Source of the DNA: Takakia lepidozioides
Taxonomy: Eukaryota > Plantae > Bryophyta
NCBI GenBank assembly: GCA_030704615.1
Contig: CM060734.1
Location: 32,054,001-32,118,000 of the forward strand
Direction of reading: 5' to 3'
DNA length: 64,000 bases
Part shown: positions 1,884 through 47,800 of the stretch, in pieces
Layout: the number at the start of each line of letters is the position of its first letter
How positions within the stretch are numbered: position 1 is the stretch's first letter
Translations under genes and position numbers: made by a program
Notes under the pieces: model-generated
Told to the model about the DNA's origin: nothing
Database searches by the model: none
The model's input: only the letters and a program-made list of their open reading frames with translations

Positions 1884-4800
1884 TCATATTCTAGACTTTG
1901 ATTTTCTAGCTTTTCCGAGAACTGAGTTTCCATGTTCTCCATTTGCCTCTGAGTCGTCAGTCTTTGCTGTTCCATCTCCTGCCTCTTTTCTACCAACTGC
2001 CGCATGAGTTCTGCAAGGTCCTTTCCAGTTATATGAAGGTAGTCCATACGAATTGACCTGACAGAAAATTGTAAGAAAACAAAGAAGAAATAAACCACCT
2101 ACGTGGTGGCCACACATTGTGAGCGAAAGAATGCAGAGAGTAAATACAGGTAACTGTCTTTTATGTAGTCATTTTCCTAAGGAGAATACCAGCACGAGTG
2201 GACTCCAACTCATGTTTCAATTTTGCTTGCAAGTCCTCTTTCGAAGCTTCCATGCTTTTCAACTGCACAAAGAAGAAAAGTGGATCACATCCACTCAGCA
2301 AGAGAAAAGAAAAGAAAATGAAATGGAGCTTTATAATGTCCACGGAGAGCTCAAAGAGCTTATGGGAATAGAGAATGAAAGAAACAAGAAAGAGAGAGCC
2401 CCCCCCACAAGCAGCTCAAAAGCAACTATTGCTCCAGGGATTGTCTCATGCATTTCTGATCCTTGTAATGGAAGACCTCCTGGGGAGATTTGGTATCACG
2501 GAATAGACAATTGAGTCTCCCACGGATCTCATAGTAGAAAGGGCAGTGAAAAGTGAAAGAAGAAATGAACAAAGGAATAAGCTTTAAAATCGACAACATA
2601 CAAGAACAATATAGAAGGAACGAACTGGGAATAAAGGATTGGGTGTTGTTTATTATCGTCTGCGGAAGCTCGAATAGCTTAAGGGAGAAGAGGAAGCAAG
2701 AAACAAGAAAGAGATTGTACTCATACGACGTTGTTTGCCGTAGCCTTGTGGCCAAGAAACAAGAAAGAGAGAAGGCCCACAAGCAGCCCAAAATCAACTA
2801 TTGCTCAATCAATGCCTTATGCACATAAGCTGCCAAGCATTTCTGATCCTCATAATGGAAGACCTCCGTGAGAGATTGGGTATCCCAGAATAGACAATGG
2901 AATCTCCCATGGAGCTCATAGTAGAAAGGGCAGTGGAAGAAGAAATGATCTTCACTTTCGCTTTCCCTGTTGTTCCAGCACAAGTGAGGCACAGGCGGTC
3001 CTCACATTGCAGGTTTTCCCACCTACCAATCTCTATCCGCAGACTGTGGGGGCCCATCATGACCAATGCCCTCGAAGAAAGGGACATAGAGCTGCAGACA
3101 GGTAATTGGGCCACAAGATTCTACCATCATGGAGGACCAAGAATGTCTCCCAATAGAACTGCAGTTTTGTTGTCAGAGTGGCTGGTTTCCATGTCTGCCT
3201 GACGTGAAGTTCCGTAAGTTCTTGTCTGATGTATTGCGGTTCAGTTTGAATGCAATTTCCACCACCTCCATATTTTGTGGCAGTAGGGAAGATACAGAGT
3301 CTCCATTGCACTCACAAAAGTTGGACACCTGAGCATACCAAGGTCTTGAAACCAGCAGTTTTGAGCCTGATAGATGTTGTGAGGGCCCAGGCTGTCAGCC
3401 CTTTGGGTGGAAGGGCTTGTAGCCTTTTAAGAAAGATTGTCAGACGGAAGACGGCCTCGGTTTGAAGTGGGACGCATGCACATCGATGTTGTGATGGTGT
3501 CGTACCTCTAGTTTCAAGCATTCCTTGGAGGAAAGACAATTGCAGTGGTTCCAGATTTTCTTCACACCAGGAAACTGGACACCAGGTGCCCGGAACTCAC
3601 AGCCATAAGTGGCGACAGGGGTGACAAGTGACAACCGAATCTAAGAGCCACTCCTGGGTGGGGGGGGTGGTGCAGGTGTATTTGTTTGCATTTAGCGTGA
3701 AGGCATATGGAGGCAACCTTGCCCTTCGTCAATCTGTTGATAGCAGTCGATGCAAACTGAAATTTGGGGATAACCAGACCCAGGTATGGGTACGATTTCA
3801 CCACCTCATTGTCTTGCTGTTTGAAGAGGAATCTCCCATCTGCCTGGCGATTGAAAACCATGATCTTGGTTTTGCTCAGGTTGCCTTGCGGCCCGTAGTC
3901 CTTGGAGAACTCTTCCAGGATGCGAAGGTGTCGTTGAAGGAAGACTGGAGATTGTGCCAGTAAAACAACATCATCAGCGTAGAGTTGTGTTGGTCCTCGC
4001 ACACCCACTCCATTATTCTTCACAATGAATCCTTCCAAAGCATCTATGTTTATTCCAAATAGGAGAGAAGGCATGGATAGAAGGGTTAAATTTGGACACA
4101 ACAGCCACAATTTGCAGAACCCTCACTAAGATGTTGATATACCTGGATCCTGAAGCTTTCCTTGTGATTCTTAAGTTGATACGGAAACAGAGGGGCAGAT
4201 AGAAAGAGATAAAGAGAGATCACCTCCTTTTCCATATCCAAGATTTCAGCATCCCGCTCACCCAGCAATGAAAGATTATACTGTCCAATAGACACCATCC
4301 ACATTGTTTATGGAGAGGAACAGAAATTGTGGAAACGATGTCTTACCTCCCTGTCCAGTTTTGAGTTCTGCAGCTACTGCATCTATTATTTCTACAATGC
4401 AATGAATCTATGAATACATCACCTTAGGCATCTGTTCTTTCTTTCTTTTCTGCCATGGGTAGTTCTTTAGTCACTCATCGCTATTTATCTGGAAGGTCAA
4501 AAGATGAAAAGGCATGACATGGTGGAAACTCTACAGCATTGATCTGGCCAAGTAGCCATTGACTAATGTAGGCACGGAAGTGGTGCTGTGCAGCTCTCTC
4601 TAACATTCTTTGGCGCCATCTGGGAAAAACCTATGTTCGCACCTAAGTTGCGAATCCGAGGCACTCGAACAGCTCAACCATTGATCAATTCTTAACAAAC
4701 CCCTGCAAGGTGGACTTCCTGCTTTCTTAGTCCCTTTCTTGTATATGAATCTACCCCCCGGTTAGGCTTAATTGGGTGTTTACCTTGAAATCTTCTTGGA

Positions 4801-17461: not shown

Positions 17462-20213
17462 ATGAACATCTTTGGGCTCGGCAGGTTGGTTGCGTTTCTC
17501 TGCCCCCTCCCAACCCGCTCTTTAATTGGAATAAATGGATTTAGATGCAATTTCGACATGGAAAGAGTCCAAGTTTAGTGGTCATTGGTTCTCTCCAGTC
17601 ATAGATCTTGGCCAGCAGTAGTTCTGGAAAGTTTACATCTTCAACCGCAATACCTGTCGAAATTTCTCGTCTTGTGTGAGATCCACAATGGCACAGTTTC
17701 AGATTGAGAGCCTTAAGTTTGCTGGCAATTGGAATACCGCCCTTTTTATTCAAGATGAGAGGTGGGGAAGAGCATGCAAGCCAACCACCAACGGGCAACA
17801 GTGTTATATAATGCTTTCTTTGTTTCTTGCCGTGGGGATGCTTCAGGTATGTAACCCTGGTGGGAGCCTGTATGTGGGGTTTTGGGGCAGGAATCAGAGG
17901 ACATTTCGGCCTAAAAAGAGTTCCCCTTCTGGTAGTAAGGTACAACTATATATCTGTCATGGCTTATCATATATGAAGTGAGTTTCATAGGCCTCTCAGC
18001 TTCACAATGGGGTTGTTTCCTGTGACAGGCTTCTGCACACAGACAGCCGATTGAAAGAGTTGGTGAGCTGCTTAGGATTTACATGAACGTTGAAAAGTGG
18101 ATGAGACTTTTTTTTCTGAAAATACAGAGAGTTTATGCTAGACTGATTGTTTTTGTGTAAGAATTGATTTGGGTGGGGGAAAGCAGGGGGCACAGCTGCG
18201 CAAGCACATTGATGCCACGCTAGGAAGTGGCAATTTGAGAGAGGCTGTTCGTCATCCCCCAGGGGAGTCTTTCTGTCCTTGACCCCTTACTCTCCTTGAC
18301 CTCTCTCATTTCTGTTCAGGTTTAGCACTGACCCTCTTGTTGGGGTAAAAGTTTCCTGCCTTATTAAGCATTGGAAGCCATCATGCAATCTGGAAATTCT
18401 TGTAGCTGAATTGCTTCGGGCTGCTTGTTGAGCCCCACATTCTTTCTTGTATCCTGCTTTCTTTGGTCCAATACTCTCCTTGAGCTTCCGGATGTTACCA
18501 AGTTTATTTCTTTCTTCTTATTGCCTTTCTTAGATACTGCTGCTCTCTTTTCCCTCCCTTCCTTGCTCCCTCCTTGAATAGTTTCTGTCCATCTTGGTGC
18601 AAATCACAGCTAGTATACGTTTGGAATTTTTGCTCAATATACTCGGGTGCACCAGGGGGGAGGACGGGGTGGTGTAACAGGCAAGTTCTGCACCAGGCAT
18701 GACATCTATATTCTAATATGAAAATGCTCTGGAGGGTGTTGCAGCGGTGGACTTTTTCAACCAGGTGAACTTACTGTATGGAACGCTGACTGAGTTTTGC
18801 ACTTCAGAGATTTGCACAAGCATGTCAGCTGGACCAAAGTATGTACCTTCATTCTTTCTACCACTTTTGGTTCAATTTTCCCCCTTGATGAGGTGGGGAG
18901 TGTGACATTTCTATAGCTCTCTGTGGGTTGAAGGATTCACGCTGATAGTGCAACTGTCCCTCCTTCGTAGAGCTAGCCGTTAAGCACAGCAAAACATAAC
19001 AAATGAGGGACACTATTAGTTTATTGTTCAAGTTTTTGGACAGAGGACAGGGACAAGACCTGATATGAAATTTTATTGCAAAACCTCTTCACAAAACATC
19101 GGCAAAGCAAAGAATTACCTTATAGATCAAGAAGCCACAAGACAGCAAAACTAGCCAGTACCTCAAAACAAAGGCAGAAGCCCTCAGAAAACAAGAAGCC
19201 TGGATTTCTCTGGCGGACAAGCTTACTCCAAAACAAAATGCCAAACATGCCACCAAGGAAAACAATGAAGGTTGTGGCAAGTAGTGACTTGAACAATATG
19301 ATGAGAAGTGAAAACAGACTGAAGGAAGGCGGACTGCCACTTACTCCATTAGCAGCAACTGTACATTGAACCAGCCAGTCCGCTAAAGAGCAGTGAAAAC
19401 CAAATGGATACTGACAAAAGACTCCTAACCTTCCTTCCTGGGGTGAGGAGCCCAGGATCCCCCTGGAGACTTGGTGCAGGGTTCCCAATTACCAGATCCC
19501 TCGCTCTCTCTCTCAATCAGGAGTGTTAGAATAAATACTCATTGGAGTAGCTCAGTGAAGCAGAGTAAAATGGTTCAGTGGTGGCCTACAGAAAATACCT
19601 GATGGTCACCTTGTTACGCTTAAGCTCTCTCCTCAGAGATGTAGGTACGAATACAGATGGGCAGATGGCATACAAATCAAAAAGCCCTTGGAAGTCTCTG
19701 CGCCCAAGTATGTGGAGTATTTGATGGACTGGATTGAAGGACAGCTTGATGATGAAGCCATCTTTCGCCAGAAACTGGGTAGGCCAGTTTGTGCACATTC
19801 TCGGCAGGTTATTTTCTTGTTTTGCTAATCTTTTTTTTTCCATCTGACTTGATCTTGGGATCTGCCTCCAGTTCAACTGCTGTACTCTCTACTATCTGTA
19901 CTCTCTACTCTCTGCTGTACTCTCTACTAGCAGGGGTTGATGGATCCTATGTAGTAGAGGGCAGTGTTGTATTTTCATGGTCAGTTGGTTCCTGGGGTTG
20001 AGAACCTAGCCACACTTTGCAGCCAAGTAGGTTCTGTTGTTCTGCCTCTCCCTACCTCTCAAACCCCTACAGTGGGTAATCTGTGTGTCTCCGGCAAATG
20101 CAGGAGCACCATTTCCACAAAACTTCAGAGAGGTGGTGAAGACAATATTCAAGCGCCTCTTCTGGGTGTATGCGCACATTTACCACTCCCACTTTCAGAA
20201 GATTGTGAGCCTC
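17462..20213 (+). pseudogene. MOB1: MOB kinase activator 1 (MOB1) gene, deleted/truncated
   Basis: Exons read MNIFGLGR | NQRTFRPKKSSPSGSK | GAQLRKHIDATLGSGNLREAVRHPPGE (cut; EWLAVN and the splice donor are missing) | VDFFNQVNLLYGTLTEFCTSEICTSMSAGPK | YEYRWADGIQIKKPLEVSAPKYVEYLMDWIEGQLDDEAIFRQKL | GAPFPQNFREVVKTIFKRLFWVYAHIYHSHFQKIVSL. Similarity then stops (no EEAHLNTCFKHF). Confidence 0.88.
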
Positions 20214-21603
20214 TCTCACAGCAGCCCAATACTTTTTCAAAAGGATGACAAGGCCAGCCATAGAATGAACAGGATCAACCCTTTAGGTGCAATGTCATCC
20301 AGAGCACTACAGTAATTCCCACTGCTGAAGACCCTCAACTAGCTCTGGGAGGGCTAGAAACCTGCAAGCAGTACACCCTTGAGGGTAGGGCTTTGCCACT
20401 GTTTTTAAGAACCATTTTTATCTGCCTGTCCAGATTGCAACAGCAGATGTCTTAACATCTTAACATCCTCCCTGAGGGTAGAATGTGGCCAGCTTACACA
20501 TGGAGATGGAACATCAATTCTTTTTCTCCTGGGCTGTGTATTATGAGATTGGAGAGACATACTGTCTCTTTGGAGGCTGCTTATCCTTCGTAATTCATTC
20601 AGTAGAAAAATTGTCGATAGCTACCTATGCACCCTGTCTCAAGCAGCTATTCGGGCACTACTAGCGACGAATCCTGAGAACTACGTTCAATTGGTACAAA
20701 AAGGGGTGGATCATCCCCACGGCACGAGATGAATTGTCAATTTGTTGATGGGGTCTATTCAAGTCTTATGGAAAGATGCACTGCATGATTATGTTCCATA
20801 CATGATGCAATTTTGGATTGTGAATGTTCAAGTTTTATTAAAAGGTATATTACATTTTTTCTCCTTCAATATTCCCAATAAAGCTCTCAACGGCTTCCTC
20901 CCCTTTTCCTTTTTTAAAAATAAAGTTGCATAAAAGATTTGGATTCATCAAGCAATTTTGGATTATGAATGTCATTAAGGAAACTTTTGTCTAATTCAAG
21001 CATCATCGAAAGGAAGCAGTTGCCTGAAGTGACCCCATAGGTTGCACAAGAGTTGTTTTTTTTTTGTTTTTTTATTTTATTTACTTTTTTCTTCTCTGAC
21101 AGCCAAAAAAATCCAAAGGCGTAGTCCTTACTGACCATCAATGTATTCGCCGCAATGTTAGCATTGAATTTTAGTTGGGATAATTGGAGGGAAAATAAAA
21201 AATTAAAATGCTCATTCGAGCCATGAGTCATTTACACTGAAACCGTGAAGGATGGATCCCCGCAATCGAGCCAAGCAAAGAGCATGACATCAATAGCAGC
21301 ACTGTGAAATGGAGTTCCAAACAGAGACCCAAAAACAATATACTTAGTAGGAAAGCTCCAACACTCTCAATGTGTGTACTTTCAGCTGAGAACATGATGG
21401 GAGCCCTTGTTGATCTTCCTCAAGGATCAAATTCCATCTCATAGTTGTGGGTTGATGGTGGTTAGGTATTCGCATCCCTACCAACACATGTACAATGATG
21501 CAACAGACTGTCTTCCGACCAGTACAAGAGATGTCACCATCTGACAATGTGGTGGGGAGAACACCCCTTTGACTTCTTCCCGTCCGAGGTTTTTACAGTG
21601 TCT

Positions 21604-21951
21604 TGTAATGGTTTTGTTTGTGATTAGTTAGAAATAGTTATTTCTAGCTAATTAGGACATTATACATTTATATTTGTATTTTGTTGGCATTAGGACTTCA
21701 TTTGGTTCCATGTGCCAAGTGAGGTGGCGAACCTCACTTGGGACGTGAAGAGGTTATCTCCACGTAAGACGTAGGCAGGCTCGTCTTCTTCTAGTCGAGC
21801 CTCCCGAGGCCTCTCTCGCCGCCCTAGCTCTAGTACTTGAGATGGAGAGTGGGTGAGGTCTCTATGGTGGAGTCATTTCGCAAAGGTGCCATTGGCTTGA
21901 CTTATATAACGTGATAGAGTTGTTTTTCATCTTTTCACCATTTCCGTATCA
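21604..21951 (+). repeat. LTR-like segment (TG...CA), inverted copy at 31886-32233
   Basis: TGTAATGG...CCGTATCA is the reverse complement of 31886-32233 with scattered mismatches; a TATA-like TATATAA lies near 21903. Confidence 0.8.
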
Positions 21952-22774
21952 CTAGAAGAAGACCTGCTTACATCTATGAGTGCAAGGTGTTAGCATAGTT
22001 AGCACTTGTGTGTGGAAGAGAGCTTGATAGATAGCTCTTAATATACAAGGTGTTGCAGGGTTTGCAAAAAGAAAATTTTGTGGTATTTATGTACAAGAGG
22101 AGGTCTTCAAGGAGAGCCCCATTGAAAAGTTTGAGAGCTTGTAAATCTTGTTTTGTAAGTGTTGCAGGGTTTGAGGAGTTCAAGAAGAGCTCGGGTGTTA
22201 AGGACGTAAGCGGTGCATGTGTGGAGCATGGTTTCAGCTTGTGGGAGTCTTCAACTTCAAGCTTAGGAGAGCTATGAATGGAGGTAGACATCTGATTTTT
22301 TTTTGGGGCAGAATAGTGTATTTGTAGAGCATGCTTTGAATTGGGGTTTCAATCCCAAGCTTGGGAAGAGCATGTCTATGGAAGTAGCAAGTGCAGGGCT
22401 GGATTAGGAGCTCTAAGATATACACTATGGCCATGGAAGGAAGCACTATGAGTGCATGCGATGGCTAGAAGAGGGTATGCCATAGAAAGCTCAATAGCTT
22501 GTTCTATATTTGTTTCAATAAGTTTCATAGAGAAAGAGAGCTTGTTGTGTGGCAAATACATTGCTCAGGGAGTTAGAGGCACTCTTGGTGGCCTATTGAT
22601 TCTCAAGAAACCAAGAACAGTACCTCTGGTTGCTCCATATAAGCCATAGCTCGTTGCAGCAATCGTAGAGGCAAAGCGGCACAAACCCTAGCTTGAGCAC
22701 GCATGGGAACGCTTGGGAACGCATAGGAACGCGTGGGAACATTGCCCAATAGTTTGGAGCACCACCATTGTCCA

Positions 22775-23185
22775 ATCGGATGAACTATTGAGCCAGTGAA
22801 AATTGGCGCTCCTGGATGAGAATCGGTTGCAGTGGATGAAACTGCGCCAGAGGATGAAATCTCATCAGCGGATGAACTATCGCACTATCGGATGAAAAAT
22901 CACGGCGACGGATGAAATCTCGTCAGCGGATGAACTATCGCAATCAGATGAAAAATCGCGGCGACGGATGAAACTGCGTCAGCGGATGAAATCGTGGCAG
23001 CGGATGAACTATCGTGCCATCGGATGAAAAATCGCGGCGACGGATGAAACTGCGCCAGCGGATGAAATCGCGCCAGTGGCTGAAATATCGCACCGACGGA
23101 TGAACTATCGTGGCGGATGAAGTATTGGACCTGCAGATGAGAAATCGCGGTTTTGGATGAAATTTGGTCAGTGACGGATGAAAAA
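22775..23185 (+). repeat. Degenerate tandem array built on a CGGATGAA(A) core, in the retroelement leader
   Basis: About 20 GGATGAA-like cores at roughly 18-22-nt spacing. Confidence 0.85.
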
Positions 23186-23204
23186 TCGATTGTCTATGGA
23201 TATT

Positions 23205-23410: not shown

Positions 23411-23581
23411 ACTATAGGAGTGTCTGCGGTGGATGCAGGTGCAGGTGCAGGTGTAGGTTCAGAATAGGAACCTAGTATTCCAAACCATAAGCCGCAACAG
23501 GTTCTCTACCCGGTTACCTTGTGGAAAGGGGGATTAGAGACAAACTGATAGCCGGTTTGAGTGTGAGTTTTCATCACGGAG

Positions 23582-25653
23582 GTGCCACCAGTTGCTGAGG
23601 AGAGTGCCGGTACGAACACCAGCGATACTAGTGGATATACAAGACGAGGTGTGCGGTTTAGGCCACCTTCACCTTCAGTGTCTTCTGAGGAAGGTTCAGA
23701 CTCAGAGTTAGGAGGATTCTCGCCGAGGGTGCAAGCCATTTCCGTGCCATTGTTGTGGGATACGATGGAGGAAATGTATGGAGCTACCAAGGGGCCACGT
23801 CGGTACTCGGGAACTGTGGGCACCATCGAGCTTGATGATTTCATACATGAGTTTGATAGTTGGTGTGATTTGCAGCAGATGCGCAATCCACAACTGTTTA
23901 TGCATTTTATGGCGTGGAAGGGGATGTTTCAGCACCTTGAAGGGCCGCCTATGGATGACTACCATGAGTTTAGGCGGGGAAATGAGGTGGAGAGGAGTGG
24001 CCACAATATTGGTCATCTGATTTTGTCTCCATCACTAGAGGCACAAGGGCAGCGGCGATACCAGCAGCTACACCAACATCCCCAACTGCAAGCACTATTA
24101 GTGGGACAAGTAAAGATGGAGCTGGGAAATCCATTCAAGCTCCTGCTGCAGCACCAACACCCGTGCCTGCCTTTAACCCAGTTGTGGAGTTCTTCGAGGA
24201 GTTGAGGAGAAAACTACCAGGGGATAAGGACGGAGAAATTGCGGAGCTTGCAAGAGTTCCAGCGCAAGCCTACTGAGAGTTTGAGGGAGGCTTACACGCG
24301 CATGAGGCGATTGATAAATGTAACCCAAGGGATTACGGAAGCTCAAGCAGTCCAATTCTGGTATAGGATATTGGACAAGGAGCTGAGGAGAAAGGTGCGG
24401 GATGCAACTCTCCTACAAGTGGACCAACCCACCTTAGCAAACGTGTTTTTGCTGGCAGAGCGGATAGAGCTCAATATGGTGGAGGAGCGAGTGGTCATGG
24501 TGGGGTTTGATAAGGAGACCCAACGAAGTGGGGCTCCTAGCCAACAACAACCACTACCCCAACATGCTCAAGGCAACAAGGGGCTCAAGCGAAACCCAAG
24601 GAAGGACAGAAAGGATCTCAATTGCAGAGGTCACTTCCTTCATTCTCAGGCCAACAACAGTCGGGTGTGACATGTTGGGATTGTGGAAGACCCCATGTTA
24701 AGAGAGATTGCCTGGAGAGAGGCAAAGGGCCGGCAAAGGCACAGCCTACACAACTACAGTGTGGACATTGTGGCAAGTATGGGCATGAAGAGGCCCATTG
24801 TTATGACTTGCATCCTGAGCTACGGCCAGGCCAGTTCCAAGGGAACAATGGTGGCCGAGGACAAGGCAATGTAGTCCAGAGAGGTAGAGGAGACAGAGGT
24901 CGTGGTGGAGGTCGTAACCAAAACCAAGGAGCACAAGGTCAAGATCAAGGTCATGACCAAGGCATGGTGGATAGGCTTGCCCAGCTAGAGCAACGTCTTA
25001 CTGCCATGGCCACTACTAATGTGGCGTCAGCTCCAAGGCCTGAGGTTCAAGCCCCACCTACACAACCTCCTATGCCTAGGGAAGACCAGATTGGTATGGG
25101 CTTCATGTGTAGAGCCGCACTTGCTGGACCATTGCATGTGGACTCTGCAGCTGCTGTCACTCGAGCAGCAACGTGTACTCCTGAGCCAAGAGGAGCAGAT
25201 ATGGATTTTGATCCACAAAGGGGGGAAGCAAGTCGACAGACAAGGCTTCCACAGTCTTTCACATTGGCTGAGACAATGCCAACTATGCCATCGATGACAC
25301 CCGCTCGCCCAAGTGTGTCAGAGGTAGAGCCACGAGTGCCAGTGGGGAGAGTTGGTGTGGCTCGAGAAATACCAGTGGGTGGTGCTGCAAAGCAAGGTGC
25401 AGCCAATACATTGTTGGGGGCGGCTACGGCTGTTTGCCAAACTCTATTGTTTTCTGCAATGACCATTGCAATGTCGGGGATTCGACCAGCTGTTGTGTTC
25501 AGACTAGCAGCTAGACTCTGTGAGAGTGGTGATGCATCGGCACTATCTGCGGGGATAGCGGATAATGTGCAGTGCATGGATGCCCTGGACTCAAGGGTGA
25601 AGACAGCCACAGGTGCACCAAGTATGGCAGCAGGCCTTTCTATTGATGAGTGA
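23582..25653 (+). pseudogene. Retrotransposon Gag (frameshifted)
   Basis: Capsid-like LQEFQRKPTESLREAYTRMRRL; zinc knuckles CWDCGRPHVKRDC and CGHCGKYGHEEAHC; RG-rich stretch; several frame changes. Confidence 0.85.
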
Positions 25654-25720
25654 GGGGAGTTCAGTGACATCACCTGGACCTCCTGAGTTAGCTCATTTGG
25701 ACACGGTGCCCATTACCTGG

Positions 25721-26690
25721 CAACCACCTGACTCAGGGATTTGTTTGCTAGACCTGTTTGGAGGCATGAGCACTGGGCTTGCAGGAGTGTTGCAAGCAGG
25801 GATTAAAGTACGCAAGTACTTGTATGTGGAGAATGATGAGATAACTCGGCGTATTTCTATGCGCCACATCGCCTTGCTCACACACCGGTATCCTGAGTTG
25901 TTGCCTCTCTTAGCAATTCAAGGGTATCAAAAGGCCTTGCCAGCAGACATTATCTTGCTGGGGGCGGATGATTTGGAGCGGCATGGTTCCATTGACTTGG
26001 TGATAGCCGGATGACCTTGCCAAGGACACTCTCCCGTAGGTCATGGGAATGGCTTACATGATGCACGATCGCATTTATTTTGGGAGATGTTGCGAGTGTT
26101 GCGGGACTTGCAGACGAGGAAAGTGCAACCTCTAGGCTATATCTTGGAGAATGTTCCTCTTATGGGGGATTCTCGGGCCAGGGTTATGGCCAGTGTGCAT
26201 CAGGTGCGGTCTTGGATTGGATCGGCGGTGCTATTGGATGCAACAACGGTGGGATCACGCGCGCATCGACCTCGATTGTGGTGGACCAATCTTGCACCAC
26301 CAGAGCTGCTCAAGAGAGCATACGATTCCATTCATCGGCCACCCAATCTCACGGTTGAGGGCATTTTAGACCAAGGGAGACAACCACAGAGGGTGCGACA
26401 TGATGACCGTCCACCTCTAGCAGTGGTCAATCGAGTAGGGCAGCCATGTGCGGCCTTGCCTACGCTCATGAGCTTTCTCTCGTCTCATGCTTTTCGAGAC
26501 AATGGTCCTGGATTGATTTGGGAAAGTGTGCTACAGCAATTGGTGGAGCCCAATGCGGATGAGCGAGAGCGGGCAATGGGATTTGCCACCGGCACTACAG
26601 ATGTGACAGCTCTGTCAGAGGCATCATGCCGCCAGGTGTTGGGTCAAGCAATGGATCTAAATTGCTTGACATGGATAATTGGCTTGTGCA
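25721..26690 (+). pseudogene. DNMT3-like C5 cytosine DNA methyltransferase domain within the retrotransposon polyprotein
   Basis: Motif I LLDLFGGMSTG; II YLYVEND; IV IDLVIAG*PCQGHS (TGA at 26012-26014 just before the catalytic PC); V GLHDARSHLFWEMLRVL; VI YILENV; VIII LDATTVGSRAHRPRLWWTNL; IX ERERAMGF; X TDVTALSEASCRQVLGQAM. Same frame as the RT ORF at 27221. Confidence 0.92.
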
Positions 26691-27220
26691 TGGCTGAGCA
26701 ACGGAGATTGCAAGCATTGATGGCTACTTCTGCACTCCCATTGGATGGTGCATCCTCCTTGCCAACCGGGACGGTTGAGGCAGTGAGTGGGGGTGAGCAC
26801 AGGATCGTGGGTTGCAAACACCCATGGCAGATGTGGGATGAGATGCGCAAAGAGAGAGTCATTGGATCTCTCAAGCAGCAGTATGAGGAATAGGGAGAGC
26901 CATGGACTGAGGATCAATTGGAGGCCAAGGTGACCAAGGTTTTTGAAGAGGTTGAGGATGGTTCTTGCGCGGAGGATGTTCACAAGGTGGCTATGGTGGA
27001 GCAAGTGGAGGCTACGCCACAGTCAGATTGGGCGGACAAGGCCCAAGAGGTTGTTATCTAGCAACCAAAGGATTCGTCTCCTACCTCCAAGCCTGGTGTA
27101 TCCAAGGTTGCAGTCACTGAGGACAATTGGGAACCAGATGTTGGATCTACAGTCACCGGAGGAGAGAGACGGAGGATCAAGCGATTTCTAAGGGCTTATA
27201 GAAATTGTTTTGCCTTCAGT

Positions 27221-29488
27221 TTGAAGGATTTGGGGAGTTTGAAAGGTCAGGAGATTCGTATTCATTTGGCAAGTGACACGCCAATCTTTCGAAGGCCCTA
27301 CCGGTATAGTGACATGGAGAGGTCATTGATCCAGTCATGGACTATGGAGTTGTTCGAAGCTGGATTGGTGGAGTTGTCAGGCGGGGAGTATGCCTCGGCA
27401 ACGATGATGCCAGCTAAGAATGATATCTATGGCAGTTGGACAGAAAGAAGGATGTGTCGGGACTATCGTCATGTGAACCGTCAGACGAAGTCCGATAGAT
27501 ATGTCATGCCAACTCCAGAGGAGATCTTTGATGCCATTGGGCATGCAAAGGTGTTTAGCACATTGGACTTGCGATCCGGTTACCACCAGTTGCCAATCAA
27601 AGAGGCTGACAAGCAAAAGACGACATTATGGGGGATTGACCAACATGGGAAGGATTGTTTGTACCAATGGCGGTTCTTACCGTTTGGGTTGAAGAATGCT
27701 CCTGCAGAGATTCAGAGGGTCATGGATAGGATTCTCGCGGGGCTAGACTTCGTCCGGTGCTATATTGATGACATCATCGTCTTTAGTGCTATGGCTGAGG
27801 AGCATGAGAGACACCTTCAGGTGGTGTTTAAGCGCTTGAGAGCGCACGGGTTGAAACTGCACCCCGGAAAGTGCAAGTTCTTCCACAATCAGATTGAGTA
27901 TTTGGGCCACATGATATACCCTGGAGGATTGGGTGTTCAACAGACAAAGATGGAGGCCATTGCATGCATTCCACGCCCCATGGATGTGAGTAGAGTTCGT
28001 GCTTTCATGGGATTGGCAAACTACTATCGACGGTTTGTCAAGGGATTTAGCAGCATTGCAAAGGCTCTTACCAAGTTGACCAAGGTGGATCGGGAGTGGC
28101 AGTGGGAGGAAGAGCAGGAGGAAGCCTTTGAGGAGCTCAAGGCTCGATTGACTTCTGCACCTATTCTGAGGCGGCCTATTCGGGGGCGGCCTTTCCAGCT
28201 ACATACGGATTGCTGGAGTATGCTGGGGATTGGAGAAGTGCTCACACAGGTAGATGATGAGGGAAGAGAGTTCGTAGTGCTATATACTAGCCGCTCGAAC
28301 AATGATGCCGAGACGAAGTATAGTTCCTATGAAGGGGAGTGTCTAGCTGCGGTATGGGCAGTGGCACATTTCAGATGTTACCTCTATGGCAATCTCTTCA
28401 CCCTTGTCACAGATCACCAACCATTGAAGTGGTTGATGGAGTCAGACAAGCTTACAGGGAAGCTTGCACGGTGGGCACTTATGCTTCAAGAGTACGACTT
28501 CCAGGTGGTGTATCAAGCCGGTATTGTCAATCGAGATGCAGATGGATTGAGTCGTAATCTATGCACGAGCGAGCATGATGATACTGGAGCTCGGTGGCAT
28601 GGTGAGACGGATGAGGAGATGGTGCCAGGATGGCATGCATCGGTCTTTTTGTGCATTCTAGCAATGGGAGCTCAAGCTGGTTCATCCCATGCGATTGGTC
28701 ATATAGATAGCGTGCATGACGATCCACAGACTAGTGAGGAGTTTGGTGGTGCTAAGGATGTGCATGAAGATGCAGCAGTGTTGGCATACCTTCGTACCGG
28801 AGAGACAGCAGCCAGTGTGACTGCTAAGGAGAGGGATCGGGTCCTACAACGAGCCAAGAGGTTCAAGTGGGAGGGGACTCACCTACTCCAGGTATGGGAG
28901 GATGGACGAGTGAGGATTGTGCCTCATCCAACACAACGAGCGCGATTGGTACGTCATGCCTATGAGGAGTTGGGACATTTTGGGGTGCGGCGCACTCATA
29001 GTTTGCTACAAGGGCAGTATTGGTGGTGGGGCATGCACACGGATATACAACAGTTAGTGGCAAGGTGCATGGTGTGTGATAGAGTGCGGGCTTCTTTCAA
29101 CGCCCCTACTCCACAATTGCATCATTTACCCATTATGGGTTTGGGCTATCGTTGGAGTCTTGACTTCGCAGGCCCATTGTCATTGACGATTCGCCACAAC
29201 AAGTATGTGCTGGTGATGGTGGAATACTTCTCCAAATGGATTGAACTGGTGGCATTGCCTGACAAGGCAAGTGAGGGGGCTGCGTATGCATTCTTAGATC
29301 GAGTGCTTAGTCATTTTGGTGCTCCAGCCGAGGTACTCACGGACCAGGGGAGAGAGTTCTTGGGGGAGTTTCAGGCTTTGTGTGAGCAAACCTTGATAGA
29401 TCACCACACTACTTCTCGGGATCATCCCGAGGCTGATGGCTTGGCGGAGAGAGTTATTCAGACAGTCAAGAGAGGTTTGCGCAAGTAC
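27221..29488 (+). CDS. Pol: reverse transcriptase, RNase H and integrase (zinc finger plus core)
   Basis: RT: FSTLDLRSGYHQ, LPFGLKNAP, YIDDII. RNaseH: LHTD..GIGEVLTQ, YEGECLA, TDHQPLKWL, DADGLSR. Integrase: ELGHFG..CMVC, SLDFAGPL, LTDQGREF, GLAERVIQTVKRGLRKY. Breaks at 29488. Confidence 0.95.
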
Positions 29489-31192
29489 CACGTCGCATCC
29501 ACGTCATACTGTGCTGTCTACACGTCACCCCCTAGGTTTTACTGTCACATTTCACTGTCAGAACCTGGCATCTGGATTCGACTGCTTGACTGAAACGACT
29601 TGACCTTTGTCACGCATGTTCGACTATGGAGGCTGGGAGTAAAAATGTCGCAAACGACTCAAAAATGAGTCAAATACAAAGTCGAAAAGCCCAGCTTGTA
29701 TTGTAGTGTTCGCCGCCATAGCGAGGCTTTGTAGCTGTCTGCCTACGATGAGGATCCGCTGCACGGGTCTCCACAGCGAGGCGCACTGATGCAGCTGTTC
29801 AACATACTTACCGGCCCACCACAACGAATGGCGATTCTAAGAGCAAAATCGGGCTGATTTTGGAACCCTCGCTCCCCCATGGTGGCACTAAGACTACCTC
29901 TTGCTGGCAGGCCTCCCACCCTCCACAATGCTCCCCACGGACAGGTATTCTTCTGCTAGCATCTACACTCCCGCAAAGCATCATATATGGTTGGGGCGAG
30001 ATTGCAGGAGGCTCGCAGATCAGCGTCATTGTCTTAGGTATACTTCAGCTAGCAAGTACATTCCAGAGAGACATCTTCTATGGCGAGTGCATTCACCCCC
30101 GCTTTGAGATGACCCCTGATCTCCTGCAAATGAACACTGATTTGGCAGGCGTCTCCACGAGAGCATCAGTGAAGTCATCGAACGCATTAGTGTAGAGGAC
30201 TAGATACAAGGAACACTCGTAAGGTGAGGAGGGGTGAACTGTAGGGCATGTTGACAGTAAATATTTTCGCCACAATGCGTGTAAAAGTAGAGGAGCAATC
30301 TTGTTACGTTCTTTTCGTTATTTGTTTTTCCTGTGCTGAGGCCTTCTCCTGTGTACATCAAACCCTCTGTCACGCTCTGAAACAAAAAAAAAAAAAAACT
30401 ATTTGTTGGCACCCACTTGAGTGTTGCTACAAGGTATTACTTGTCTTCCCTGATGCACAACACACACTCAGGCTGTGTATTTGTGGTGTACAAAGACACC
30501 CATCATTATCAAGTCGTGATCTTTGGAATCAAACCCAGTGAAATAAATGAGTTGTTCATGCCCTGTATGTTGTTTGAGGAGGATCTTGATGTTTGGTAAG
30601 TGTTACACTGATAACACTTAGTTCTGCATTTTCTTTGCCACCCGTGCAGCAGTATGAATAATTATTCAGGAGTGGTCAAATCGTTTGAAATTAACAAGTC
30701 TTGTGCCCAAAGTCACTCTTCTGGAAGCGTCTCTGACAGATTGATTTTATCTCCGTAGGGTGCAGGCCCTCTCCTTCAAAGAGCTAGTGGATTGTATCGT
30801 GTTCAAGTTTGGCAACACTGTGGCTATATATGGATATACAGCAGACGAGTCTCTGAACGCCTCCTTGCATTTGGAAAGGATATGGATGGACCAGTGTGCA
30901 TTAACTTGGGAACTGCTGTTACAGATGCCAATAGTCATGTGGAGTGTGATGGACACGAGTCTCTTGAAGGTTTACATGGTGGCGGTTTGTGAGTATGTGA
31001 AGTCCACTGAATAGACTTCATGCAAGCACTGGCAACGAAGGTGACCTTTGAGCATATTTTTGTACAAACATTTGTTGTTTGAGGTTCTGCTGTAGGGGCT
31101 TCATCTTGCATTTTGCTGTGAGCCCAAACACCAGCCACAGTGCAGCTAGGTTGAACTGGCAAAAACCTAGTTAAGTTCAGGTAGATCCATAA

Positions 31193-31370
31193 AGTAAAAA
31201 GTAAAAGTATGACGTCTCCCGAAGGGAGCGAAACTTATGGTGTCTCTTCACCACAAGGGCTACTGCCTTCCAGCTGAAAGGTGGACACCTTCATGACACA
31301 CCAGACCGTGGTTTGAACCCACAACCACATCCAACGTGGTATGTGTCCATTACCACTAGGCTACACTGTC
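31193..31370 (-). mobile_element. tRNA-derived SINE with a 12-bp TSD
   Basis: Minus strand has A-box TAGCCTAGTGG, B-box GGTTCAAACC and a (TTTTAC)n tail. Perfect TSD GTAGATCCATAA at 31181-31192 and 31371-31382. Confidence 0.85.
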
Positions 31371-31457
31371 GTAGATCCATAACAAGGGCCTTGTGCTCAC
31401 AACTCTCTCACATCCAACCACTCTGACATATAATTTTGCTGTTGGTAGGAATAGCAA

Positions 31458-32334
31458 TGTGGTGACTGACGTGGTTGATGAAGTGGACCCTATTGAAGAA
31501 TTCAGTGAAGGGGGTGAAGCCCATAACGTCATGGATGAATTCAGTGGGCTTAATTCATCCACTTAATTCATCCATAATTAGTCCCCAACACACTGTATCA
31601 ACAGATTTCTATCTTCCCCCCACCCAAAACCCAGGATTTTCTTTCAAGTTGGCACCCAGAGACAGTACTAGTTGTGCTGCTTCTGAAAATGTGCAGTTTT
31701 GGATACAAGCACCCACTGTGGTAGCCTCAGTTCCTTTAGTGTCACCTTCACATGAGGTATCTCTTGACTCTCCTGGGAGATTTCTAGTTGATGGAGGCTG
31801 TCGTGCACCTAAGCATCGTGTCACAACATACATCGTTGTCCAACCACACTTCCTAGCATACAGTCCTAGAAAGCCACACCACAATGGCTTACGGAAATGG
31901 TGAAAAGAGGAGAAACCACTCTATCACATTATATAAGTCAAGCCAATGGCACCTTTGCTAAAGGACTCCACCATACAGACCTCACCCACTCTCCATCTCA
32001 AGTACTAGAGCTATGGCGGCGAGAGAGGCCTCGGGAGGCTCGACTAGAAGAAGACGAACCTGCTTACGTCTCACGTGGAGATAACCTCCCCACGTCCCAA
32101 GTAAGGTTCGCCACCTCACTTGGCACATGGAACCAAATGAAGTTCCAATGCCAACAAAATACAAATATAAATGTATAATGTCCTAATTAGCTAGAAATAA
32201 CTATTTCTAACTAATCACAAACAAAACCATGACAGCTGTCGTGCACCTAAGCATCGTGCCACAACATACATCGTTGTCCAACCACACTTCCTAGCATATA
32301 GTCCTAGAAAGCCACACCACAATCGCCCCCCTAG
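31458..32334 (-). repeat. Polypurine tract plus 3' LTR (TGTGGTG...CACCACA) with an internal ~90-bp duplication
   Basis: Minus-strand PPT AGGGGGGCGAT immediately precedes TGTGGTG (32321). The far end is CACCACA at 31458. 31797-31885 is duplicated at 32234-32323. Confidence 0.7.
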
Positions 32335-32546: not shown

Positions 32547-32929
32547 CTACCTCTGTCCAAGGCATCGTGGACACAACCATTCTCCGATAGGAACCTCCTC
32601 GAGTCGCGGTGTCAAGCATCCTATGTGCCACCCCCTTAAGCATTTGTCACACACCAACATGGTTGCGGCGCTACCAGCATGCAACGCAACCCTACAGGTA
32701 CCACTGCAAGGTTGGGATATATCCTCCTATCCACATGTGGAAGGTGACATGGCGCACAATTGCGCACATGGTCCTTCCATATCATGCCCTCTCGACCCTC
32801 CAAAATCAACACTCCTGAAGTCAACACCTCCTGACCCTTAGAATCACACGTCCTGCTGTGACACCCCAGGTCGTAGGTGCTGTCTGCTGTAGATACACAT
32901 AGTCCCCAGGATGGAAACGCCGAACACTT
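32547..32929 (-). pseudogene. Integrase C-terminus ending in a PHD finger (inverted segment)
   Basis: PSVRRFHPGDYVYLQQ...LILEGREG..HVRNCAPCHLPHVD..GLRCML(small deletion)AATMLVCDKCLRGWHIGCLTPRLEEVPIGEWLCPRC*. This is the C4HC3 pattern with the diagnostic W; the second Cys is lost to the deletion. Confidence 0.85.
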
Positions 32930-33232
32930 GGGCAGAAGGGACACCTAGGAGATTGGGACCTTCAACTGCCTTTTGCTAGCTATGGGCTATAGGTTCAGTA
33001 AACAAGCTTCACTTGCCTCCTTCTCCTCTTCGGCCGAGAGCCGGATTTGCCTGCATCTATTCGCAAGGAGGCTGCAATAGTTCTCAACCTTGATGATCTG
33101 GATGTGTGGACACAAGCATGTGCCCAACGGGCAGAGTTGTTCAAGAGAGTTATGCCTATGGCTTTTGAGAACCTTGCTATTGCCCAACACCGAGACACAT
33201 TGAGGTACGCCACTATACGTGGAGGCGGATAT
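32930..33232 (+). pseudogene. Displaced integrase segment that directly continues the Pol ORF broken at 29488
   Basis: QKGHLGDWDLQLP..LAMGYRFSKQASLASFS..FGREPDLPASIR...FENLAIAQHRDTLRYATIRGGGY, the usual post-core integrase sequence (W...LP....YR....S...P...FGR). Confidence 0.85.
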
Positions 33233-33914
33233 GACGTGTAGTAAAATGGTTTAACTGAATTATAAGGTGGATGCATGACGTGTAGCGAGTGGCTCAAGGG
33301 CAGAGTGATGTGGATGCATGACGTGTAGTAAAGTGGTTCAACTGAAGTGGAACATATTGACTACGTTCCATGATGTTTAGTATATGGTTTGACTGTAAAT
33401 CGGTGATAGTGAGTTTGCTTGACTTTGTATAGTGTAATATTCTACTGTGAAGCAGTAAAAGAGGACACATTTTAGTAAATATGTTTCACGGGGGTGTATA
33501 TACATAGATACATATAAAAATAAAAATACATATATATATAATATAATATAAATATGAATTGGGAGGCTTTTATTTAATATTTGGTTTTTTTATTACTGTT
33601 ATTTCTTTTTTTATTTACTTTTAGTTTATATCTGTACGTATGTGAATTCGTGGATATTGTATTTAAATCTTTTGATTCGCTGCACTGCATTGAAAATATA
33701 TTACAAATACAACAAAACATAGAATACAAATACAGGTCGGAACGCAGAACATTTGGATGGCTCAAAACTGGTTTATATCAAGAGTGTTTTGCTAAACAAG
33801 TTTTGGCCACATTCTACAAATGACCAACATGAGGGCCATGTTGCCATATCCATAGATCACTGCCCAACTGAAGTCATTGAGTAAGGATAATCTGCTGTGC
33901 AGCTAGGTCCAGCA

Positions 33915-44877: not shown

Positions 44878-47800
44878 TCACCAATAATCCCCACAAGAAC
44901 AAATCCCATCTTCAAAGTGGTGAAAGCGGTTGCCGTCCCGTACAACAATTGCTCGGCCAACAATCTTTGAGATGAATTTCGTGGAGGTGTGGCAGTCACC
45001 ACACACTCGAAGATTCTTGATGAGACGGAGAGGCGTCCTAGGGGTCGTGCTGATCAGCCCAAAACCAATGGCCAGCTTCTCACTGTGGTGGCAAAGAGAA
45101 AATTCCTTTTCCTCCTCCCCCACATCATGCAGTACAAAGCGCGTGTCAGGCACATACCCCGCCTCCTTCATCTGCCCAGACAATCTTCTCAGCTCAGCAT
45201 GGATTTCCTTAATCCTGGGATGCAACTTGTCATCTACAACGAAGGTGTGCACCCTGTTGCCAACCTCAATGCAGCATCGACCTGGCTCCTTTCTAACCCC
45301 TCTGACCTTCATCATTCTTCTCACCTTTGCACTATCATCCCACCTGCCAGCTGCAGCATAGATGTTTGATAGCAACACATAAGTAGCGGCATCCTGTTCA
45401 TCCCACTTGAGGATAAATGTTGCCGCACGTTCAGCCATCTCCACATTGCCATGGATTCTGCAGGCACCAAGCAAGGCCTTCCACACCACCACACCTGGAT
45501 TGATTGGCATTTTATTAATCAGGTCCACTGCCTCATCCAGTTGTCCCGCACGTCCAAGAAGGTCAACCATGCAGCCAAAGTGCTTTACTGTCGGAGTGAC
45601 ACCATGATCTTGACTCAGGGAATCAAAGTAGCGTCTTCCTTCATTCAGTAGGCCACTGTGGCTGCATGCAGAGAGAACACATATAAAGGTGATACTGTCC
45701 GGCTTCAAGCCGTTCTTTTGCATTCCTTCAAATAGTTGCAGGACCTCCCTATGACAACCATGCTGGGCATATCCTGCGATCATCGCGTTCCACGACACCA
45801 CATCTCGTTCAGCCATACTGTCGAACACTCCCTTTGCATCCTCGATGCACCCACATTTTGCATACATGTCCACCAGGGTATTGTTCAGAATGACATTCGG
45901 TACAATTCCAGCTCTGACAATGTCGCCATGGACATCTTTGCCCTTTTCCAGAGCTGCCAGGCTTGCACATGCATTGCAAATGCACACAAACGTGATGGGG
46001 TCGGGCTTCACCCCTTCCCCCATCATTTGCTCATAGGTCTCCAAAGCCTCCACACCGCGCCCCTGCTGTGCATATCCTGCAATCATCGCGCTCCACGACA
46101 CCACATCTCGTTCAGCCATATTGTTGAACACTCCCTTCGCATCCTCAATGCTCCCACATTTGGCATACATGTCCACCAGGGCAGTGTTCAGAATGACATC
46201 GGGTACAATTCCAGATTTGACGATGTCACCATGGACCTCTTTGCCCTTTTCCAGGGCTGCCAGGCTTGCACACGCATTGCAAACGCACACATACGTTATG
46301 TGGTCGGGCTTCACCCCTTCGCACATCATTTGCCCATAGGTCTCCAAAGCCTCCATCCCGCGCCCTTGCTGTGCATATCCTGCAATCATCACACTCCACG
46401 ACGCCACATTTCGTTCAGCCATACTGTCGAACACTCCCTTTGCATCCTCGATGCACCCACATTTGGCATACATGTCCACCAGGGCAGTGTTCAGAATGAC
46501 ATCCGGTGCAATTCCAGATTTGATGATGTCACCATGGATCTCTTTGCCCTTTTCCAGGGCTGCCAGGCTTGCACAAGCATTGCAAACGCACACAAACGTG
46601 ATGTGGTTACACTTCACCCCTTCCCCATCATTTGCTCATAGATCTCCAAGGCCTCCATCCCGTGCCCCTGCTGTGCATATCCTGCAAGCATGGCATTCCA
46701 TGACACCACATCTCGTTCAGCCATACTGTCGAACACTCCCTTTGCATCCTCGATGCACCCGCATTTTGCATACATGTCCACGAGGGTATTGTTCAGAATG
46801 ACACCGGGTTCAATTCCAGCTCTGACAATGTCACCATGGACCTCTTTGCCCTTTTCCAGGGCTGCCAGGCTTGCACATGCATTGCAAAGGCACACAAACG
46901 TGATGTGGTTGGGCTTCACCCCTTCCCCCATCATTTGATCATAGGTCTCCAAAGCCTCCATACCACGTCCCTGCTGTGCAAACCCTGCAAGCATCGCGTT
47001 CCACGACACCACATCTCGTTCAGCTATAGTGTTGAAAACTCCCTTCGCATCCTTAATGCACCCACATTTGGCATACATGTCCACCAGGGCAGTGTTCAGA
47101 ATGACATCTGGTACAATTCCAGCTTTGACGATGTCACCATGGACCTCTTTCCCCTTTTCCAGAGCTCCCAGGCTTGCACATGCATTGCAAACACAAACAA
47201 ATGTGATGTGGTTGGGCTTCACCCCTTCGCACAACATTTGCTCATAGGTCTCCAAAGCATTCCTACCACACCCATGCTTGGTAAATCCTGCCAACATTAT
47301 ATTCCACGTGATCAAAGATCGTTGAGGCATTCTGTTGAACACTTGGTGAGCATCCATGATGCTCCCGCACTTAACATACATGTTGACAAGGGTGTTGAGT
47401 AGAAAAACATTTGGCGTGAATCCACTTTGGATAATGTGAGTGTGCACCTGCTTTCCAGCTTCCAGACCCTTCATCTTGATGCACTTAAGCAAGAGAGAGA
47501 CATACGTATCTGAATCTGCTGAAATGCCTCCTTGGTTTAAAGTCTGTAGAGCCTCTGTCAGTCTGCCTGCCTCACAAAGCATCTTCACATGCCCAGAAGT
47601 GCCAGAAGAGGCATTGTGGACTCCCTCTCTTGATCCTCTTTCAGAAGCTGTGGTCATGGTTGAGGTGCCTGATTTTATCAACTGTGCCGCTGCAGCTGCT
47701 GCCTTTAGGTGACCATCTACCCATGCAGGTTTTTTGTAGCTATTGATCCACAGGGAATCATAGGTAATCTTGTGCTTGAAATCTGGAATTCTTGGATGAA

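Follow-up and report, generated by a model that had tools for sequence, protein, structure and literature searches.

The window analysed here is a stretch of 64,000 nucleotides from the moss Takakia lepidozioides (contig CM060734.1, positions 32,054,001 to 32,118,000 of the forward strand). It contains a Ty3/gypsy retrotransposon with a DNMT3-like C5 cytosine methyltransferase (MTase) that is intronless and lies in frame ahead of the reverse transcriptase (RT), RNase H and integrase, the last of which ends in a displaced PHD finger. The element is almost certainly a dead copy of a Ty3 retrotransposon of the KnitGypsy-Dnmt3 type, known from the charophyte Klebsormidium nitens (de Mendoza et al. 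2018, PMC5890265, cited here and below from its accessible text). Coordinates of the features are collected in Table 1.

A DNMT3-like methyltransferase in frame with the reverse transcriptase

A single frame (25601-29503) runs from the MTase through RT and RNase H into the integrase, and its sole interruptions are a TGA at 26012 and TAG codons at 26891 and 27059. A scan of this frame detected the C5 MTase motifs in canonical, unpermuted order I to X between 25751 and 26656, with motif I (DLFGG) starting at 25751, motif II (YVEND) at 25823, the PC of motif IV at 26015, ENV at 26147, RPRLWWTNL at 26267, ERERAMGF at 26561 and LGQAMD at 26639; the TGA at 26012 sits immediately 5' of the PC, and the RT motif YIDD starts at 27761. 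A preliminary description of this DNA had reported the ordered motifs, the lack of introns and the common frame, all of which were confirmed. With the TGA read as X, the domain matched the Pfam DNA_methylase profile (E=1.7e-11), a check proposed in that description, and its top match among solved structures was DNMT3A (E=3.5e-14). A profile of 20 relatives gave 58-75 bits with DNMT3A/B/C (74.9 with DNMT3A itself), 65.5 with a Pelagibacter phage enzyme, 33-41 with DRM, 24-29 with HhaI/HaeIII and 22-23 with DNMT2. The structure match and the scores for DNMT3 and DRM bear out the earlier statement that the domain is closest to DNMT3, as judged among solved C5 enzymes; by these profile scores its donor may have been a eukaryotic host DNMT3 or a prokaryotic DNMT3-like enzyme. 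P0003, a natural relative with an intact domain, was modelled (mean pLDDT 70, pTM 0.75), and its predicted fold also had DNMT3A as first structural match (E=3.9e-16). DNA_methylase was the sole family named in the ESM Atlas.

A conserved amber stop at the end of the methyltransferase

Both domains, MTase and RT, are present in 67 loci including the window, many of which are repeat assemblies of the same insertions. At the site of the stop at 27059, TAG or TAA was found in 61 of these 67 loci, TAC in two and no stop in four. Alignment with relatives indicated that the TGA at 26012 and the TAG at 26891 are private to the window copy. Three single-codon stops do interrupt the frame, as stated before, and two of them are private decay; the third is a conserved feature of the family, and for this reason the reading of all three as decay was rejected. 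An exact CAR-YYA follows the stop in the window and L029 (CAA CCA), in L070/L071 (CAA CTA), in L058 and L087 (CAA TCA) and in L059/L061 (CAG TTA), and the hexamer is kept in five divergent lineages. All four YYA codons are used after the stop (Pro, Ser, Leu) while neighbouring residues vary. Within the window, 5 of 1429 TAGs have this context. Locus L059 has two unbroken open reading frames (ORFs) of 1369 and 1047 residues with one TAG between them, and its first Met 3' of the stop lies inside RT; in the window the first Met is 84 codons 3' of the stop, and the window, L059 and L087 all have no early ATG after the stop. Many relatives in protein databases end 98-149 residues past motif X, and the window TAG lies at residue 140.

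In tobacco mosaic virus (TMV), the CAR-YYA hexamer is essential for readthrough, which reaches 6-10% in stable plant lines (PMC2754532, from the sections available). Conservation of the stop together with a readthrough context suggests that the MTase ends a Gag-protease-DNMT protein, and we consider it very probable that RT, RNase H, integrase and PHD finger are made by amber readthrough. As judged from the compared sequences, the stop at 27059 is a signal of the family and not damage. The MTase had been described as part of the RT polyprotein, and this has to be narrowed, since the domain appears to end ORF1 at the conserved amber and would be joined to RT in the readthrough product only.

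Relatives, trees and selection

A protein database search with the MTase domain gave 202 relatives that are about as long as the domain and 60 that are longer, and the organisms named include Marchantia polymorpha, M. paleacea, Calypogeia fissa, Riccia sorocarpa, Sphagnum and Closterium. Many loci were found in M. polymorpha, where the main domain matches are 56-69% identical to the window MTase, and elements of liverworts and mosses have intronless homologues with 60-79% identity at the corresponding place. A search with RT-RNase H also reached Klebsormidium, Tetraselmis, Haematococcus and Volvox, as well as seed plants at 36-38% (best 120 of 2180); among the matches listed for the MTase and RT-RNase H searches, with the same scope for the latter, there was no fern, lycophyte, hornwort, Physcomitrium or Selaginella name. 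The metagenome loci (the best 80 of 272, plus L087) were chosen by MTase match and so cannot reveal sisters that lack the MTase; every locus long enough has the order Gag-protease-DNMT-RT-RNase H-integrase-PHD. The Klebsormidium gene KFL_009030040 has the order protease-DNMT-RT-RNase H-integrase, as in these loci, and its MTase is 42% identical over 266 residues. The place first assigned to the MTase, between gag and RT, is correct, with the amendment that in relatives a protease, deleted from the window copy, lies between gag and the MTase.

Quick trees were made from hand-picked representatives with midpoint rooting. In the RT tree all MTase-bearing rows fall into one group (55 of 65 rows, SH-aLRT 99), inside which the order is unresolved. 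The same main groups are seen in the RT and MTase trees, and the window groups in both with Calypogeia, Marchantia and moss-type sequences (nine rows with support 98 and ten rows with support 99, respectively). The ratio of nonsynonymous to synonymous substitution (dN/dS) of the MTase, another check proposed earlier, was 0.08-0.17 in seven between-lineage pairs and undefined in two further pairs; dS exceeded 1 in most of these pairs and was near saturation in several, and the L059/L061 pair, with dS 0.25, gave 0.14. Decayed sister copies gave 0.38-0.66 for the MTase and 0.27-0.73 for RT. The catalytic motifs PC, ENV and RxR are kept across the family. These comparisons indicate that the MTase is under purifying selection. 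Along with the homologues at the same position and the concordant trees, they support the view that in land plants it is a genuine component of the element, maintained by selection, and, as had been claimed, no passenger fragment. The expectation of a land-plant lineage was right for mosses and liverworts; by sequence homology the lineage is that of the Klebsormidium Gypsy element, reaches Zygnematophyceae and chlorophytes, and is neither specific to land plants nor a separate invention of theirs.

A second architecture, RT-RNase H-DNMT-integrase-PHD, was observed in proteins P0158-P0175 and P0287-P0328 (including P0295 of Haematococcus and P0323 of Volvox). These proteins form one group in both trees, from which it follows that the MTase moved within the lineage. 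Tetraselmis carries the form with the MTase upstream, and P0305 also has a G-patch. A second, divergent (~40%) MTase-bearing lineage is present in the same metagenomes (L077-L079) and in Calypogeia (P0302), with an altered reading of motif IV in two aligned rows; L077 and L078 lack any stop ahead of RT. L087 (1-9285) and protein P0024 are a eukaryotic element of the family filed in a cyanobacterial metagenome-assembled genome, likely by binning contamination; the L087 contig has a 127-nucleotide terminal overlap (collapsed repeat or circle). In the Ty3 polyproteins P0314, P0318 and P0329, protease and RT are separated by an adenine methyltransferase of the Dam type, and a PHD finger is present as well (both domains checked in P0314 and P0318); in the RT tree these proteins stand outside the cytosine-MTase clade. 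Dam domains have been described in DIRS elements (PMC5890265). Searches of viral contigs found no related element, one of them giving weak bacterial-type matches only.

In run X1 the summed contig depth, which is not equal to copy number, was ~9e4-5e5 over the coding region and 140-240 in neighbouring single-copy DNA, which marks the element family as very abundant. Depth over the MTase was about half of that over RT, which could reflect faster divergence or sisters lacking the MTase. Two runs presumed to be RNA also have contigs over parts of the element, which does not demonstrate transcription.

Terminal repeats and integrated ends

The element has the primer site, polypurine tract, TG...CA ends and 4-bp target duplication that are hallmarks of Ty3 elements. 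In place of two identical, complete long terminal repeats (LTRs) at both ends, the LTR, composed of repeats B and A, is permuted to A-internal-B-A-B or A-internal-B; as the polypurine tract precedes B1, the replicated LTR would be B+A. The A-coding-B-A-B layout was found in the window (with its 3' part inverted), L037, L063, L069, L073 and L076. The internal region is followed by B-A(-B) in eight loci and by B alone in 13, and is cut by the contig end in one; B-only forms could alternatively derive from B-B recombination or assembly collapse. Of nine loci with both ends, the 4-bp duplication is perfect in six and has one mismatch in three; that of the window has one mismatch. The palindrome at the B/A junction is conserved in the window, moss-type loci, L059 and L087. 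Since the terminal repeats are not paired as usual, structure-based LTR finders are likely to miss such elements.

Within an element, B1 and B2 have private variants in common (at 7 of 57 variant sites), and no fixed difference between them was detected across six elements, suggesting that both are copied from one template in each cycle. The A2/B2 junction is mostly exact, with remnants of the polypurine tract kept in the window and L063; end-joined two-LTR circles keep such remnants. The 17 differences between A1 and A2 over 345 sites correspond to a few million years if the rate is near 1e-8 per site per year. That the integrated ends lie at a palindrome within the LTR suggests integration via permuted or circular complementary DNA (cDNA), and the integrase probably acts at this internal palindrome as its attachment site.

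Decay and rearrangement of the window copy

The copy in the window is dead, with the protease deleted, two damaging stops, a broken gag and a rearranged 3' end. About 266 residues including the protease, which is present in relatives, are missing. Contigs of all four runs compared join 29487/29488 to 32932, and in two runs contigs connect 33232 with 32931 on opposite strands; these joints put the integrase of sister copies back into its normal order. The possibility of two separate elements in opposite orientation was rejected because sister contigs join the pieces in order. The PHD finger of L059 is closest to those of CHD4, PHF12, KDM5-PHD1 and BHC80, fingers that mostly read unmethylated H3K4.

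A contig of run X9, ~93% identical, crosses the protease-deletion junction (25232-25620), and a protease-less subfamily retaining the MTase may exist. At the integrase breakpoints, high-depth repeat ends with repeated CACGTC-containing motifs (29489-29640 and 33233-33400) face each other; they probably belong to a DNA transposon involved in the inversion.

Table 1. Features of the retrotransposon in the window
Feature	Positions	Strand	Basis
Left target-site duplication, 4 bp, one mismatch to right copy	21600..21603	+	Sequence; relatives with 4-bp duplications
Repeat A1, element 5' end, TG...CA	21604..21951	+	95% identity over 345 nt to 32234-31890
12 nt in A1 complementary to primer site; predicted RNA 5' end and self-primer	21783..21794	+	Sequence; same arrangement in L076, 14 nt
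Primer-binding site adjoining A1, complementary to the element's own A	21952..21963	+	Sequence
5' leader, degenerate tandem repeats	22830..23190	+	Self-comparison
gag and zinc-knuckle region, frameshifts and stops	23567..25569	+	Weak Retrotrans_gag match; tblastn to Marchantia Mp_4g09160 residues 1-569
Junction of ~0.75-kb deletion that took the aspartic protease	25570..25612	+	P0123 570-835 and P0210 621-888 unmatched
DNMT3-like C5 cytosine MTase, intronless, damaging TGA 26012-26014 in motif IV	25718..26731	+	Pfam, structure and profile matches
Linker TAG, absent from relatives, read as decay	26891..26893	+	Comparison of loci
Conserved amber stop and CAR-YYA context (TAG CAA CCA), end of ORF1	27059..27067	+	Comparison of loci; motif definition PMC2754532
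Reverse transcriptase	27191..27970	+	RVT_1 E=8e-32
RNase H	27971..28555	+	RT_RNaseH E=3.5e-32
Integrase, zinc finger plus catalytic core, truncated at 29488	28778..29488	+	Domain search, relatives
Foreign DNA between element halves (repeat end, single-copy DNA, other repeats)	29489..31794		Contig depth profile, joints
Right target-site duplication	31795..31798	-	Sequence
Repeat B2, element 3' end	31799..31883	-	Self-comparison
Repeat A2	31890..32234	-	Self-comparison
Palindromic B/A junction, halves equal to sequences at integrated ends	32230..32241	-	Also in L059, L087
Repeat B1, TG...CA	32237..32321	-	96.7% identical to B2
Polypurine tract before B1	32323..32332	-	Sequence; kept in relatives
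Inverted integrase tail with PHD finger (32553-32672), frameshifted	32553..32931	-	PHD E=5.5e-10; contig joints
Displaced next integrase piece	32932..33232	+	Contig joints; sister contigs join 29488 directly to 32932

Elsewhere in the window, PPR genes and pseudogenes of the PLS class, intronless and lying on both strands, are clustered at 34000-54100, and a PPR gene at 44878-46635 (-) ends in E, E+ and complete DYW domains; such PLS-E+-DYW genes mark the host as a land plant. A spliced gene at 18690-20200 (+) has exons that resemble a MOB1 kinase activator, a tentative identification. A fragment of another reverse transcriptase lies at 3562-4122 (-; RVT_1 E=2.5e-8).

A possible replication cycle and its alternatives

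The cycle that we favour, with somewhat more confidence than doubt, combines a Gag-PR-DNMT ORF1 and a readthrough RT-RNase H-integrase-PHD part with a particle-packed MTase that would methylate new cDNA before integration. By analogy with Ty3 and TMV biology, Gag-PR-DNMT would be the main product and readthrough would supply the RT-RNase H-integrase-PHD part at a few to ten percent. The MTase would enter the particle in amounts similar to those of Gag and, as Ty3 biology suggests, be freed inside it by the protease. Self-primed reverse transcription would yield linear cDNA of the form B-A-internal-B-A, and the integrase would cut the palindromic B/A site inside the LTR rather than the cDNA ends; linear or one-LTR molecules would give A-internal-B, whereas two-LTR circles formed by end joining would give A-internal-B-A-B. 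The PHD finger would likely steer the integrase to chromatin with unmethylated H3K4. The MTase would meet the cDNA in the particle, and the most likely benefit would be that new copies arrive methylated like host DNA. The odds that cDNA is the actual substrate appear to us even. Arrival of methylated copies has been proposed for SymbioDIRS-Dnmt3, and the related Dnmt3 domains of SymbioDIRS are de novo CG methylases (PMC5890265). A more far-reaching version, which is tentative and on the whole rather unlikely, would see an ancient Ty3 clade extending from chlorophytes to mosses and liverworts that, through TMV-type readthrough, packs its DNMT3-like enzyme into particles at Gag stoichiometry, integrates circular cDNA at the LTR palindrome, and methylates itself, either disguising its cDNA or choosing between two identical attachment sites. 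If true, this would be a DDE-integrase retroelement with the two-LTR circle, normally a dead end, as a productive intermediate.

Several observations weigh against the favoured cycle. KnitGypsy-Dnmt3 expressed in yeast gave no methylation, a result its authors regarded as inconclusive (PMC5890265). In the moss subfamily (48 of the 67 loci) CAA CCC ATG follows the stop, a context that departs from CAR-YYA by one base and allows reinitiation. In L077-L079, in the Closterium proteins and in the Klebsormidium gene model, MTase and RT are joined without this stop, so that expression at Gag level is not needed across the lineage. No consistent or conserved RNA structure was detected 3' of the stop (folding z +0.7 to -4.2). 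Finally, B was not found before the 5' A (the mirror form A-B-A-internal) in any of 19 loci with upstream context, and a plain symmetric model of two-LTR circles leaves this absence unexplained.

Alternatives concern the role of the MTase, the nature of the stop and the origin of the domain. The enzyme might act, after nuclear release, on chromosomal DNA (the insertion site or existing copies) and shape or limit expression of the element, a reading that we regard as improbable. Gag-level expression would leave free enzyme for it, and the PHD finger of the CHD4/BHC80/KDM5A-PHD1 kind on the integrase parallels the ADD module of DNMT3, but the MTase has no chromatin-reading domain of its own, the PHD finger lies on the opposite side of the stop, and the chlorophyte-type MTase, moved between RNase H and integrase, is still with the cDNA machinery. 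A chromosomal target is among the options proposed in PMC5890265. It is also unlikely that the MTase is kept for nucleic-acid binding, for RNA methylation or for marking the B/A palindrome for cutting at a single site, instead of bulk methylation of cDNA: the yeast result with the Klebsormidium enzyme (PMC5890265) would fit, as would an attachment palindrome that contains CG and CHG sites and is used asymmetrically, whereas PC, ENV and RxR are retained across the family and DNMT2 shows the weakest similarity among the solved C5 enzymes.

That the stop is a true terminator, with RT made by reinitiation or from another RNA, is quite unlikely. An ATG three codons past the stop in the moss subfamily and an early Met in some relatives would suit such a scheme, but the window, L059 and L087 offer no early ATG, and CAR-YYA is conserved at the nucleotide level despite saturated synonymous distance. 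Hardly any credence can be given to the MTase as a captured host gene fragment or retrocopy confined to the window copy, an objection already raised in the preliminary description. No support was found for it, although sisters lacking the MTase may exist (15 of 152 contig joints were covered, and depth over the MTase is about half of that over RT). It was rejected because intronless homologues occupy the same position in elements of mosses and liverworts and the MTase, shared with Klebsormidium, appears to be under purifying selection.

Retrotransposons bearing an MTase, the very class of enzyme by which they are silenced, were hitherto known from dinoflagellates and one charophyte, and land-plant copies are now added. 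The kind of element itself was already known; new with respect to Klebsormidium are the land-plant copies, the probable readthrough junction and the proposed integration route. A literature search found no report of these three, within a coverage that excluded most subscription papers and the main supplement of PMC5890265; in the parts available, PMC12344493 only repeats the finding of 2018, to which PMC9033089 and PMC11194755 contribute nothing further. Because the lineage is present in many annotated loci of the genetic model M. polymorpha, the role of the enzyme is directly testable there. Bryophyte gene models that include a DNA_methylase domain are also, in many cases, transposon proteins. 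From the conserved readthrough signal the amount and place of the enzyme can be predicted, and the combination of a permuted LTR and 4-bp duplications suggests an integration route that is unusual for a DDE integrase.

Comparison with known systems

KnitGypsy-Dnmt3 shares with the window family the Ty3 affiliation, an intronless Dnmt3-like domain between protease and RT, A-coding-B-A-B repeats and purifying selection (Ka/Ks <0.2 in Klebsormidium; PMC5890265), and the RTs of both fall into the single clade of 55 rows. The window family differs in its land-plant hosts and in the amber junction, where MTase and RT are in the same frame with a conserved stop between them, in contrast to the one ORF of the Klebsormidium gene model. 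The accessible account of KnitGypsy-Dnmt3 (PMC5890265) mentions no PHD finger, self-priming site, 4-bp duplication or attachment palindrome inside the LTR.

The stop resembles type I readthrough of TMV (UAG-CAR-YYA, PMC2754532), in which an in-frame amber with CAR-YYA gates the polymerase behind an abundant upstream protein, and suppression of a gag-pol stop in rice RIRE2 is cited in the same source. The stop of the window family follows protease and MTase and not directly gag, and readthrough is predicted here from sequence. Readthrough into env is known from SIRE1.

Tf1/sushi elements and plant Tcn1 chromoviruses (PMC6317226, as far as available) likewise have a primer site complementary to their own LTR and a chromatin-reading domain at the integrase C-terminus. 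The window family has a PHD finger instead of a chromodomain and permuted terminal repeats; membership in the chromoviruses (Tcn1, Chlamyvir) was rejected on the PHD finger and lack of a chromodomain, and the RT stands apart from the chromovirus-like outgroups used in the tree. SymbioDIRS-Dnmt3 and PAT-type split-direct-repeat elements (PMC5890265) have in common with the window family a Dnmt3 domain in a retroelement (SymbioDIRS) and the A-coding-B-A-B layout, but they use a tyrosine recombinase, in contrast to the DDE integrase, polypurine tract and 4-bp duplications found here. The rve integrase and the target duplications led to rejection of DIRS/PAT membership, and with the protease supplied from relatives the order Gag-PR-RT-RNase H-integrase is that of Ty3/gypsy elements.

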